Source: Flaccisagitta enflata (lineage: Eukaryota). From it: a stretch of 64,000 nt of DNA. Within the stretch, counting starts at the first letter, position 1; the number at the start of each line of letters is the position of its first letter. The stretch is from assembly GCA_965153355.1 (NCBI GenBank), contig OZ231126.1, forward strand, positions 1,116,001 to 1,180,000, read 5' to 3'. Shown one piece after another: positions 810-27,503 of the stretch. Below the pieces are notes generated by a model, which was not told where the DNA came from, searched no databases, and saw only the letters and a program-made list of their open reading frames with translations. Position numbers and translations under genes: made by a program.

Positions 810-1121
810 ATCGAGTATGAGCGCCTTGCTCAATCATGTACTCAGTTCACGAGCGACGTGTTGGACCTTTGTCCCTCTCTCCTTCAGATCGAGTATGAGC
901 GCCTTGCTCAATCATGTACTTAGTTCACGAGCGACGTTCTCGACCTTTGTCCCTCTCTCCTTCAGATCGAGTATGAGCGCCTTGCTCAATCATGTACTCA
1001 GTTCACGAGCGACGTTCTCGACCTTTGTCCCTCTCTCCTTCAGATCAAGTATGAGCGGCTTGCTGAATCATGTACTCAGTTCACGAGCAATGTTCTCGAC
1101 CTTTGTCCTTCTCTCCTTCAG
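810..1121 (+). repeat. Four 78-bp tandem copies of TRPC exon A start plus acceptor
   Basis: Units start at 810, 888, 966 and 1044; the real exon starts at 1122. Confidence 0.92.
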
Positions 1122-1283
1122 ATCGAGTATGAGCGGCTTGCTCAATCATGTACTCAGTTCACGAGCGACGTTCTCGACCTTTGTCGCGACTCAAACGATG
1201 TCAAAGCGATTTTGTTCAGTTCTCAAGATGGAGATGAATTTCTTGGAACCATTTCCTACGCAATAAGATTCGAAGAAAAAGCG
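1122..1283 (+). CDS. TRPC-family (canonical TRP) cation channel, internal exon A (IEYERLAQSCTQFTSDVLDLCRDSNDVKAIL...AIRFEEKA)
   Basis: cttcag acceptor and GCG|gtagg donor, 54 codons, phase 0/0. Peptide resembles the TRPC pre-S1 pattern EYxxLxxxCxxFxxDLLDxCRxSxEVxAIL...AIxxExK. Not in the ORF track's frame. Confidence 0.8.
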
Positions 1284-1909
1284 GTAGGGATGACTACTGA
1301 ATGAATGAATGAATGAATGAATGAGAGGATGAATGAATGAATGAATGAAAGAATGAATGAATGTGTGTATGAACGAGTGACGCATGAATGAATGAATGAT
1401 GAATGAATGAATGAATGAATGAATGAATGAATGTGGGAATAAGAAGTTGGACATTTGATGAATCGGGGAAACAAAATCGAGGAAGAGAAACAAGTGTCAT
1501 AAAAATAGAGGAGTTACCATTCATTCATTCATTCATTCATTCATTCATTCATTCATTCATTCATTCATTCATTCATTCATTTATTCATTCACTCATTTCT
1601 CTTTCAGTTCATATCGCACCCGGTGATACAACAGTTGATTGCCACTGCTTGAATGAATCATTGATACAATCGGTGATTTACCCAATCATCCATTTATTCA
1701 TTCATCCATTTATTCATCCATTTATTCTTTCATTTATTCATTCATTCATTTATTCGTTCATTCATTCTTTCATTCATTCATTCATTCATTCTTTCATTCA
1801 TTCATTCATTCATTCATTCATTCATTCATTCATTCATTCATTCATTCATTCATTAATTCATTCATTCATTATATTCATTCATTCATTCATTCATTCATTT
1901 CCCTGCCAG

Positions 1910-2011
1910 TTCATCTCGCACCCGGTGATACAACAGTCGATCGCCACAGCTTGGAATGGAGATGGAAATATCGAAGGATCAACTTCCTTACCCGCGCTCA
2001 CAAATGGACGG
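1910..2011 (+). CDS. TRPC-like channel exon B (FISHPVIQQSIATAWNG...)
   Basis: ctgccag acceptor, CGG|gtaag donor, 34 codons; resembles the TRPC motif FVAHPNCQQxLxxIW. Confidence 0.8.
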
Positions 2012-2509
2012 GTAAGAAAGCAAGTCGGATGGACGGACGGACGGACGGGCAGACAAACGGTTGGAGGGACGGACAGATGGACGGACGGGCGGATGGATCC
2101 GGGCTCACAAATGGACGGGTAAGTCAACAAGATGAATGGACGGACAGACACACCGTGGCTAAAAACCACCCCCGACGCAGACCGGGGACCAACCAACCCG
2201 TTAAGCTTAACCAACCTAAACCACCATAGACCGTCTAGACGGGCGGACAGACGGGCGGACGGACGGATTGACGAATGACGAATGGACCTGCGCTCACTAA
2301 GGGACGACTAAGTCATGAAAACCAAAGGCTAGGAAGGCTAATTTTAGTCTTTTGAGGGGGGGGGGGAATGACTCAGAATCGGAAATGGAAGAAACTTTCC
2401 CCGCGTGAAATCAAAGGGGGTACTCCGGAAACCCAAAATTACAGATGATTGTCCTGTCTGAAATTTTAGGGCATCTGTTACTCATGGGTCGCTGCCCATA
2501 AGGCGGGGA

Positions 2510-3215
2510 AGAGATAGAATGAAGGAAAGAGATAGAATGAAAGAAAGAGATAGCATGCTAGAAAGAGATAGAATGATAGAAAGAGACAGAATGCAAGAAA
2601 GAGATAGAATGCAAGAAAGAGATAGAATGCAAGAGATACTATATAATGCTAGAAAGAGATAGAATGTAAGAAAGAGATAGAATGTAAAAAAGAGATAGAA
2701 TACAAGAAAGAAATAGAATGCTAGAAAGATATAGAATGATAGGTGGAACAACATCCCTCACTATACCCAAACTAAAATAAATGTAAGAGGGCCTTGTGAG
2801 CCCTCACTGACTAGTTACTACGCGCATCACTCCTAGTTTTCCATAAAACAGAATTTGAAAAACGTTCCCTCTCACTCTAACCCAAAAGAAAACTACTCAC
2901 CAAAATAGTTAAGGGCTAATGTCTGTTTCCTTTGTTACCAAAATTCAACAAATCACCCGATGGTAACATTGTTAAGAAACCATACCCTTAAAGGATAGAA
3001 TCGAGGTCAAGCTTACTGCGACCGCCGGACATTCCAATCCAAGAAGAAAAAGATAGAATTCAAGAAAGAGATAGAATGCAAGAAGGAGATATAATGCTAG
3101 GAAGAGATATGATTCTAGAAACAGATAGAATGCAAGAAAGAGATATAATGCAAGAAGGAGATATAATGCTAGAAAGAGATAAAATTCTAGAAAGAGATAG
3201 AATGCAAGAAAGAGA
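2510..3215 (+). repeat. 18-bp minisatellite AAGAAAGAGATAGAATGC interrupted by ~300 bp of unrelated sequence
   Basis: Arrays at 2510-2740 and 3045-3215. Confidence 0.8.
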
Positions 3216-3359
3216 TGGAAGACGAGGGAACGAAAATGGAAAAGAGGGAAGCAGATAGTAACTTAATAAGATATCGTTTTATTGACGGGACATCATCTCG
3301 TCTGGTGAAAATAGCAGTATTGGGCTGTAGGCACATGAAAGGGAAATCGATGGGGCAAG

Positions 3360-4177
3360 GAGATAGTCCGCCAGCGAATTTGGGGGTGTTCATCAACGGG
3401 GAATGAACGCATGTTGCTGAACAATGCCATAAAGCTGTTCAAGAACGACTAAAAAGAGGCTCTTGGCAAACAATTTTGTTCATGGAGGGCCCAAAAGGAC
3501 ATGTTCATGAACGACCATTCATTGAGGGGTAAAAAAAGCCGTTGCTGAACAGGTAAAAAGAAACACTCCACCAATGGTTTTGTTGGTGGAGTAGGTCTTT
3601 TACCTGTTCATGAAAAATGCTTATCTGGCTGTTAAAGAACAGCAAAAAAAAAGTTTTTTGATAAACAGTTTTGAGCATCTAGTTTAAACTAACAAATAGT
3701 TCATTATCAAAACTTTTTTGACCCTGCATGAATGGCTGGGTTAAAAGATATTTTGTTAGAGATGAAGTGATCTTGAGATTTTTTTTGCCATAAATGGATT
3801 GGACTTGACACTCTCTTCATAATTCTTAAACCATAAATAATGCTTATCTGGTTGTTCATGAAATACCAAATTTTGCCTTCTGATGAACAGTTCTGTTCAT
3901 TGAGTGGATAAATGTTACAGTGAAGACTGAAGATAATACAAATTGGGTATGAAGATATTTTGTCATAAGTGGAGTTAATCACCACTTTACCAACATAATT
4001 ATTGTTGCAGTGGATTTTTTAGCCGTTCATGAACGCGCTTTTTATGGCCTTCCGTGAACAAAATTGTTGGCCAAAGGTCTCCTAAATTGTGTTCATCAAC
4101 ACCTGTATGGCATTGTTGCTGAACAGGCGTTCATTCCCCGTTGCTGAACGCACCCAAATTCGCTGGCGGACTACCTG
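3360..4177. mobile_element. Non-autonomous hAT-like TIR element
   Basis: TIR (C/G)AG(G/A)TAGTCCGCCAGCGAATTTGGG, imperfectly extending for more than 80 bp; 8-bp TSD GGGGCAAG at 3352-3359 and 4178-4185; no ORF. Confidence 0.75.
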
Positions 4178-25697: not shown

Positions 25698-25992
25698 CGG
25701 GATTCGTTATAGGAGTCGATGGTTGTTGTTGTTGTTGTCACCTCTTCGTTAAATCCGTTTTTGACTCGAGTTTCTTTCAATTTGAAGAAAAAAACAAAAA
25801 TCGCGACGACGTTGAAAAAAGCGGCCACCAAATTGGGAAGCAAAAACGGATAAGATTGAAGGAAGTGGACGAGGCATTCCGGAAGATGCTTGACGACGTC
25901 CGGATACGCGCCGACGGGATCCGCCAGCAGACCACCGATGAAAGGCGCCAACATGATGCTCAAACTCCAACCGATGTTGTAAAATACCATAC
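25698..25992 (-). CDS. MFS transporter exon 4 (GMVFYNIGW…APFIGGLLADP…YPFLLPNL…LKET)
   Basis: Antiporter motif C (PxxGGxL), YPFLLP and LxET motifs; phases 1/2 agree with neighbouring exons. Confidence 0.9.
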
Positions 25993-26045
25993 CTTGGAAG
26001 AAAATGGATAGTTTTTAGTACATTAGAAAATAAAGAGAGATCATA

Positions 26046-26608
26046 CAGTAGATCTCGTCTAGACTTGAGATAACGGGGGCAAGCATTGTGGAAAGAGGAA
26101 TAAAGGCAGGGGAGCGATATTTTTATCATAGACTAGTCAAAAGATGCTTAATTCCCCATGATAGCTGGTTGCCATGGAAACACATTTCTATGTATTCTCG
26201 CTAAAATATCAATATTTTGAGAAATTTTTTTAGGGAACATTGCTTAAAATCAAATTTGCTACAACTTTCCCACAGTATGTTCTGTAAGAATATCGCTCGT
26301 TTGGCCGTTGCTAGGGAGCGTATCCATGTGTGACGACCCCTAGCAACCGCTTAACGAGCGACATTCTTACAGAACATACTGTGGGACAGTTGTAGCAAAT
26401 TTGATTTTAAAAAATTTTCCCTCAAAAAATTTCTCAAAATATTGATATTTTAGCGAAAATACATAGAAATGCGTTTCCATAGCAACCAGCTATCATGGGT
26501 AATAAACCATCCCTTTATAAGTCTATGTTTCAAATATCACTCCTCTTGCTTCATTTGTTTTTCCACAATGCTTGCCCCCGTTATCTCAAGTCTAGACGAG
26601 ATCTACTG
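26046..26608. mobile_element. Palindromic MITE (Tc1/pogo-type) in MFS intron 3
   Basis: Perfect TIR CAGTAGATCTCGTCTAGACTTGAGATAACGGGGGCAAGCATTGTGGAAA; TA TSD; near-palindromic interior. Confidence 0.92.
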
Positions 26609-26854
26609 TACGTCAGAGGACAGGATAAACTTATAGTATCTTATGAATTCGGGGATACAATACACACACACACACACACACACACACACACACACACACA
26701 CACACACACACACACACACACACACACACACACTCATTCCACTCTTGGGGATGAGAGTTAAATGCGTTCATAGCCATTATCCGATATCCGTCAATATTCA
26801 AACTGTAAATTTTGTTCACTGTATAATTGTTACTATATTCAATGTAAAACTATC

Positions 26855-27425
26855 CGGCAGGCTGGTTGGTGTCGTCTGTCACATCCCCAATCATCATCAT
26901 CATCATCATCATCATCATCATCATCATCATCATCATCATCATCATCATCATCATCGTCATCGTCATCGTCATCGTCATCATCATCATCATCATCATCATC
27001 ATCATCATCATCATCACTTACCAGTAGGCTGGTTGGTGTCGTCTGCCACATCCCCAATCATCATCATCATCATCATCATCATCATCATCATCATCACTGA
27101 CCAGCAGGCTGGTTGGTGTCGTCTGTCACATCCCCAATCATCATAATCATCATTATTATCGCTGACTAGCAGGCTGGTTGGTGTCGTCTGTCACATCCCC
27201 AATCATCATCATCATCATCATCATCATCATCATCATCATCATCATCATCATCATCATCATCTTTATCATCACTATCACTTACCAGCAGGCTGGTTGGTGT
27301 CTTCTGCCATATCCCCAATCATCATCATCATCATCATCATCATCATCATCATCATCATCATCATCATCATCATCATCATCATCATCATTATCATCATCAT
27401 CATCATCATCATCATCACTATCACT
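26855..27425 (-). repeat. Five copies of the MFS exon 3 end plus donor, separated by (GAT)n expansions
   Basis: GATTGGGGATGTGACAGACGACACCAACCAGCCTGCTG|GTAAGTG repeated on the - strand. Confidence 0.9.
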
Positions 27426-27428
27426 TAC

Positions 27429-27503
27429 CAGCAGGCTGGTTGGTGTCGTCTGTCACATCCCCAATCATCGCCTTTGTAGTGCACAAAACTCCGTTGCTCA
27501 AAC
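27429..27503 (-). CDS. MFS transporter exon 3 (GLSNGVLCTTKAMIGDVTDDTNQPA)
   Basis: tccag acceptor, G|gtaagt donor, 75 nt; GLxNG…K…E/DxTDxxNQ pattern of ZIFL1-like proteins. Confidence 0.88.

Follow-up and report, generated by a model that had tools for sequence, protein, structure and literature searches.

A 64,000-nucleotide window of the Flaccisagitta enflata genome (contig OZ231126.1, positions 1,116,001 to 1,180,000 of the forward strand; "the window" is this whole stretch) contains five exons of a TRPC-like gene on the plus strand and nine exons of an MFS transporter gene on the minus strand. Several of these exons are flanked by local copies of their own splice junctions, here called junction echoes, which are arranged in tandem arrays in the adjoining introns. 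The window is animal-like eukaryotic DNA with a G+C content of about 32-47%. Tandem repeats are extraordinarily dense in it, Tandem Repeats Finder (TRF) returning 160 rows for the 64 kb, and the comparison of the window with Rfam gave no match.

Exons A to E of the TRPC-like gene have canonical AG/GT borders and join as one open frame. Exon A aligns with the TRPC3, TRPC5, TRPC6 and TRPC4 chains of PDB (best E 3.8e-4), with which it has the stretch VLDLCRDS in common. At its thresholds Pfam gave no match for any of exons A-E, a search of exon A against longer proteins found no homologue, and TRP box and pore motifs were not found anywhere in the window, including the part past exon E (8011-64000, about 56 kb). 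Judged from its sequence, TRPC-like would be a fair label for these exons. The gene is either truncated or runs past the window, with the MFS gene and the later sequence inside a giant intron. In the MFS gene every junction is AG/GT, and Pfam MFS_1 matches exons 2 and 4. The query with MFS exon 4 had a sole match, the homologue P0002, which is 55% identical and aligns with exons 1-4. Another frame for MFS exon 8, frame B, was rejected as it offers no AG in a fitting phase, while 19224-19079 keeps the frame open. The closest proteins found for the window, with the MFS gene and a long interspersed nuclear element (LINE) as queries, are 55-63% identical, and among the matches listed all come from JGI, ENA and Logan, with neither NCBI nor UniRef represented; this speaks weakly against an annotated Branchiostoma. 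One stretch of exon D and one of MFS exon 3 were compared exactly with metagenome contigs and gave 0 matches each. Sequence words of the window occur in small proportion in marine metagenome and metatranscriptome runs, which says nothing of habitat or expression.

For each of the 26 internal junctions, the 50-mer with the junction at its midpoint was aligned to the surrounding sequence within 1.5 kb on either side, on the same strand. Junction-spanning local copies were detected at eight junctions (score 25-48), which belong to six of the 14 exons and are distributed over both genes. They comprise four acceptors (A_acc, B_acc, D_acc and MFS7_acc) and four donors (B_don, D_don, E_don and MFS3_don), and in all eight arrays the alignment extends 8 nt or more past the junction in both directions. 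The set coincides with the one listed in the initial annotation of this DNA. A ninth junction, MFS6_acc, matched only through a (GA)n microsatellite. A donor echo of exon C suspected by eye near 6296 fell below the alignment threshold and was discarded. About 30 echo copies are present in total across the eight arrays. The units are confined to their own locus, with no dispersed copies elsewhere in the window, and follow one another head to tail with lengths of 53, 54, 78 and 86 bp; units with embedded microsatellites measure about 65-146 bp. B_acc and MFS7_acc each consist of two copies, which are 302 and 108 bp apart. The mean share of exon sequence in a unit is 0.69, and it exceeds 0.5 in seven of the eight. 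The positions of exons and arrays are listed in Table 1.

In the TRPC-like gene, each A_acc unit has a polypyrimidine tract of about 13 nt with CAG in front of the 65 nt that open exon A. Its four echoes are 92-99% identical and CAG is intact in three of them. Both edges of exon B are echoed, the acceptor by one copy with 88.5% identity over 78 nt and an intact CAG, and the donor by the copy given in Table 1 along with a weak third copy at 2270-2327. The D_acc unit joins about 28 nt of the 3' end of the intron to the first ~58 nt of exon D; three echo acceptor sites lie in register (the span flag of the aligner counts 1), all with intact AG. The D_don unit consists of the last 39 nt of exon D, GTAAGA and about 9 further intron bases. 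GT is intact in 8 of its 11 echoes, and the copies are 98% identical next to the exon and down to 78% farther away. The E_don array comprises five echoes and one partial copy, which are 78-98% identical, with a consensus-like GT in all six units. It is split by an inserted element whose terminal 200 nt are identical at 164 of 200 positions in inverted orientation. The array continues in register after the insertion, and when the element is taken out of the sequence, the restored site corresponds to the unit at 8036-8095. The element itself has long inverted arms and its own internal duplications of about 560 bp.

In the MFS gene, the MFS3_don unit combines the final ~40 nt of exon sequence with the donor and a (GAT)n tract of variable length, these tracts being placed where the exon has GATGAT. 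GT is intact in four of its five echoes. MFS7_acc is a single diverged echo, 80% identical over 65 nt, with intact AG.

Table 1. Positions of junction echoes, the inserted element and the exons of the two genes in the window.
Feature	Position	Strand	Basis or detail
A_acc array, 78 bp, 4 echo units (798-1107) and functional unit	798-1187	+	TRF period 78 x5
B_acc echo: exon B acceptor and first ~49 nt of exon, 302 nt upstream, within (CATT)n	1578-1655	+	
B_don echo: exon B end and donor CGG/GTAAGT (slash marks the junction)	2099-2145	+	85% identity over 47 nt
D_acc array, 86 bp, upstream of exon D	6377-6667	+	TRF period 86; copies 87-94% identical
D_don array, 54 bp, 11 echo units	6841-7434	+	TRF period 54 x11.5
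E_don array, first part, unit ~53-60 bp: exon E end and GGTAAGT	8036-8261	+	TRF
E_don array, second part past the insertion, 2 units, both with GGTAAGT	13481-13585	+	
Inserted ~5.2 kb element, inverted ends, TA flanks, within one E_don echo unit	8262-13480		
MFS3_don array, 5 echo units, downstream of MFS exon 3	26840-27428	-	
MFS7_acc echo: exon 7 acceptor and ~86 nt of exon, 108 nt upstream	19487-19600	-	
TRPC-like exon A, functional copy	1122-1283	+	AG/GT; match to TRPC chains
TRPC-like exon B	1910-2011	+	AG/GT, frame continuity
TRPC-like exon C, without echo at either edge	5793-5879	+	Exon model, junction alignments
TRPC-like exon D, functional copy	6668-6825	+	Exon model, open frame
TRPC-like exon E, functional copy	7856-8010	+	Exon model, open frame
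MFS transporter gene, 9 exons, 716 codons	18144-28802	-	Spliced model is one 2151-nt open frame
MFS exons 1-5	28802-28451, 28197-28003, 27503-27429, 25992-25698, 25212-24823	-	Exon model
MFS exon 3, functional copy	27429-27503	-	P0002 alignment over exon 3-exon 4 join
MFS exons 6-9	20141-19968, 19454-19322, 19224-19079, 18534-18144	-	Exon model
MFS exon 7, functional copy	19322-19454	-	Exon model, open frame

The arrays have a consistent polarity, acceptor copies lying upstream and donor copies downstream of the exon, as the initial annotation had stated. This polarity is forced, because after a tandem duplication the rest of the exon stays attached to a single site, the last of the acceptors or the first of the donors, and all other copies fall on the intron side. 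The polarity shows only that the duplications are tandem. The decay of the copies away from the exon, claimed at the same time, was recovered for D_don only (Spearman rho -0.91, P 1e-4) and is absent from A_acc, E_don and MFS3_don; in E_don it is the third copy that comes closest to the functional one (98.4%). The alignments support the view that introns grew here through tandem duplications spanning their junctions, which left decoy sites behind. In the in-register alignment AG or GT is kept at 27 of the 32 echo splice sites (19 of 23 donors and 8 of 9 acceptors). Neutral decay at about 10% divergence predicts a retention of ~0.8, and because the observed retention fits this value, nothing points to selection acting on the decoy sites in either direction.

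In the spliced models the frame is open only with the exon-proximal site. P0002 runs straight over the join of MFS exons 3 and 4 (NQAPG from exon 3 followed by MVFF from exon 4) only when the first donor copy is taken. Reading frames, this one homologue and published precedent together suggest that the exon-proximal sites are the functional ones. Every echo donor tested would lead, if used, to an immediate or early stop or to a frameshift; with the D_don echo donors TAA is read at once, and with the echo donor of MFS3_don a stop follows at +5. Use of the B_acc echo acceptor would likewise bring in a stop codon, and use of the D_acc echoes a frameshift or a stop. In-frame and stop-free echo acceptors are A -78 and A -156 (window positions 1044 and 966, plus strand) and MFS7 -108 (19562, minus strand), while the other echo acceptors give stops or frameshifts. 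If used, A -78 and A -156 would add 26 and 52 residues to the TRPC-like protein, and MFS7 -108 would add 36 residues to the MFS protein.

Whether echoes are enriched at junctions was found to depend on the null that is chosen. Non-exonic 50-mers with a local copy make up 27.3% of the genic part (300-29300) and 39.5% of the remainder (29300-63700), and gapped scoring of the same background gives 25% and 39%. Against this raw coverage the 8-9 echoed junctions among 26 (31% for eight) are not enriched (P 0.16-0.87). The comparison with distance-matched intron positions, which the initial annotation had named as the check, gives a similar result, with echoes at 9-13 of 24-26 points placed 60-400 nt into introns versus 9 of 26 junctions. 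By the refuting condition of the initial annotation, read literally, the proposed enrichment over background duplication fails. Raw coverage counts all copies of an array, while the founder unit is the only one in which a junction can fall. A founder correction, by which control points are weighted by 1/(copies), is considered the correct and more appropriate null. The copy-number-weighted background is 10.2% and 11.9% in the two parts, and 7.7% and 10.5% without microsatellite-like 50-mers. Outside the junction-seeded arrays, non-microsatellite echoes are found at 0-3 of 16-18 distance-matched points. Under the founder-corrected null the junctions show a nominal excess of about 3x (up to ~8x), a figure which rests on 26 junctions, on hand curation and on a region picked because the pattern was present. 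A junction bias is suggested under the corrected null alone.

Other repeats and elements are abundant in the window. An uninterrupted non-LTR (long terminal repeat) retrotransposon open reading frame of 1159 codons, with endonuclease and reverse transcriptase, lies at 20594-24070 (minus strand) in MFS intron 5. It had 165 matches, of which the 120 listed are all of ENA/Logan metagenome type, at most 63% identical, and none from NCBI or UniRef. Near-perfect long palindromic sequence, forming a possible hairpin element, was seen by eye at ~26040-26615 in MFS intron 3, and similar palindromic elements with internal short arrays are situated at 27575-27860 and 15300-16140. Degenerate TTAGGG-like repeats form a short interstitial stretch in MFS intron 4 (25299-25360). 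Within the MFS coding sequence, 24-bp and 18-bp repeats are present in exons 5 and 1, in a loop and in the N-terminal tail respectively (25082-25145 and 28675-28735, minus strand). They keep the reading frame open, tandem duplication entering coding sequence here where it preserves the frame.

Beyond the two genes, a complex satellite of 2.7 kb (29527-32183) is built of GAC/GAT codons with higher-order periods of ~100-218 bp; several of its frames are open on both strands, with no evident gene. Large arrays at 45127-47350 and 54968-60600, with units of ~470 bp and 138-141 bp along with a 19-bp array of 49 copies, make up the bulk of the local-repeat coverage in the window's second half. A short interspersed element is found on both strands throughout the window, often followed by microsatellites of (GGAC)n type; examples lie at 280-330, 5395-5450, 17745-17810, 34780-34950 and 62568-62840. 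This element may be the source of the abundant 4- and 8-bp repeats.

Repeats of comparable position are known from amphioxus, where they have been called mirage minisatellites; those of Adh3 were reportedly first described by Canestro et al. in 2002. The available text of two papers describes mirages in Adh3, in the globins BflGb6 and BflGb9, in PGBD5 and in troponin C (PMC3087553, PMC3902484). According to the same text they occur at 5' and 3' boundaries alike, their units measure 10-160 bp and many retain AG/GT; splicing was normal by reverse transcription PCR, their length varied between haplotypes, and they were proposed as a route to intron lengthening or gain. The arrays of the present window resemble them in a repeat unit that crosses the exon-intron boundary, in the presence of both boundary types, in head-to-tail units of minisatellite size, in several arrays per gene and in the mostly retained AG/GT. 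They differ from them in that several units embed microsatellites. For the amphioxus arrays, normal splicing and length polymorphism have been demonstrated. The pattern had been presented as new in the initial annotation; in view of this match (PMC3087553, PMC3902484, as far as their available text goes) it is one more case, and a dense one, of a phenomenon already described and not an element of a new kind.

The 37-bp variable number tandem repeat in intron 7 (IVS7) of human F7 is a second precedent. As given in the available part of the report, its first repeat element spans the exon 7 donor, the pseudo-donors are functional but silent, and experiments show that only the most upstream of the identical donors is used (PMC1557585). 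The same succession of a true donor and identical pseudo-donors is seen in D_don, E_don and MFS3_don. Unlike the present arrays, F7 is a single mammalian locus with donors only, and the choice of site is experimental there and deduced here. A related process is intron gain through tandem duplication of an AGGT-containing segment, for which the Rogers model and a survey of internal gene duplications stand (both as cited in the available text of PMC3087553), and potato RdRp is a case of intron gain or growth by such duplication (PMC4974935, available text). As in that model, a second splice site is gained by duplication and the copied segment turns intronic. Unlike in the model, existing introns are lengthened at existing junctions and no new intron position is seen: all the arrays lie at existing junctions, none forms a new intron inside a continuous exon, and in the open-frame model no exon part of an echo is spliced in. 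In searches of full-text literature, no genome-wide survey of junction-spanning repeats was found, and no report of them beyond cephalochordates and F7.

On balance the arrays are probably minisatellites of this mirage type, that is, local tandem duplications of the common sort, in which the founder unit by chance lay across an exon-intron junction. The strictly local units, the repeat-saturated background and the TA-flanked 5.2 kb insertion in one array support this explanation, as do the AG/GT retention at the neutral level, the open frame obtained with exon-proximal sites, the stops or frameshifts that echo donors would cause, and the precedents in amphioxus and F7. The duplications would originate from the same slippage or unequal exchange that packs the non-coding DNA of this genome with tandem repeats. 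When the end of an intron and the start of an exon are duplicated, the last acceptor would still be joined to the intact exon; when the end of an exon and the start of an intron are duplicated, the first donor would be. The original mRNA could then still be made from the exon-proximal site, and all other copies would become intron. Afterwards the arrays would expand, diverge and take transposon insertions as neutral minisatellites, and microsatellites might sprout from exon-derived seeds, as from GATGAT to (GAT)n. We infer that the echo copies are neutral. A selective filter, in which duplications persist where they are harmless, had been offered earlier as one of two causes; it stands insofar as tolerance at junctions suffices to explain the existence of the arrays.

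Four observations weigh against this explanation. Under the founder correction eight junctions are seen versus 2.0-3.1 expected (binomial P 0.0005-0.009, nominal and post hoc), and a hand-curated count of independent events expects 1.0-2.1 straddling arrays versus eight (Poisson P 1e-5 to 0.002). Judging from the sequence, the three in-frame echo acceptors A -78, A -156 and MFS7 -108 could be used without penalty. Finally, the branch point of the functional exon A acceptor must presumably lie in exon-derived echo sequence, because the 78-bp units hold only ~13 nt of intron. The mirage-type explanation would attribute the ~3x excess mostly to slower divergence, one copy being under selection, along with the small post hoc sample. 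A junction array should be detectable for longer, because one of its copies is constrained and pairwise divergence then proceeds at about half the neutral rate. This slower divergence is expected to explain at most ~2x of the excess.

The excess would be real and genome-wide if duplications started preferentially at exon edges, which we consider unlikely although it is the alternative that fares best. Intronic microsatellites may misalign with matching short motifs at exon edges, or breaks and template switches may be coupled to transcription or splicing; both routes share in this low estimate. The ~3x excess over the copy-number-weighted background and the few non-microsatellite echoes at intron points outside junction-seeded arrays (0-3 of 16-18) are in its favour, while raw and distance-matched rates are without excess and the 26 junctions were a post hoc choice. 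The earlier proposal of a junction-biased mutational process stays a suggestion, the excess of about 3x appearing only after copy-number correction or after removal of the junction-seeded arrays from the controls. Microsatellites do adjoin several of the echoed edges. At MFS3 the exonic GATGAT adjoins (GAT)n, at the B donor the exon end ATGGACGG adjoins (GGAC)n, and (TGTC)n(CT)n lies upstream of exon A, where the A_acc unit ends in CTTTGTC. These microsatellites may, however, be secondary expansions of exon-derived seeds in unconstrained echoes, and none adjoins D_acc, D_don or E_don. The exon-heavy units (mean exon share 0.69, above 0.5 in seven of eight) would also fit a start at exon edges, but this may reflect detectability.

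A function of the arrays is quite improbable. Spare landing sites for U1 or U2AF might strengthen the real site or suppress premature polyadenylation, or the in-frame acceptors might serve as alternatives which add segments of 26 or 36 residues. The consensus-like GT in all six E_don units and the three in-frame, stop-free echo acceptors are consistent with this. On the other side, the retention of 27 of 32 sites equals the neutral expectation, the copies have diverged to as low as 78%, a transposon splits one of the arrays, and the amphioxus and F7 arrays are reported silent in the available text of their reports. An assembly artefact, or a chance overlap of unrelated repeats with exon edges, is very improbable: some junction overlap is expected in so extremely repeat-rich a window, but the repetition is not perfect, each copy having private substitutions (78-99% identity), the E_don array is in register on both sides of the TA-flanked insertion, the echo units hold true exon sequence in the exon's own register, and the eight arrays of the two genes have a published counterpart.

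The rows of near-identical decoys are a natural test of how one of several equivalent sites is selected by the spliceosome, with up to 11 donors after one exon and up to four acceptors before another, each with 13 nt of intron. It is doubtful, though conceivable, that junction-seeded duplication drives intron growth systematically across the genome and supplies in-frame alternative acceptors, in a process reaching beyond cephalochordates. A junction excess throughout the genome would suggest that exon edges and tandem duplication are linked at the level of mutation.

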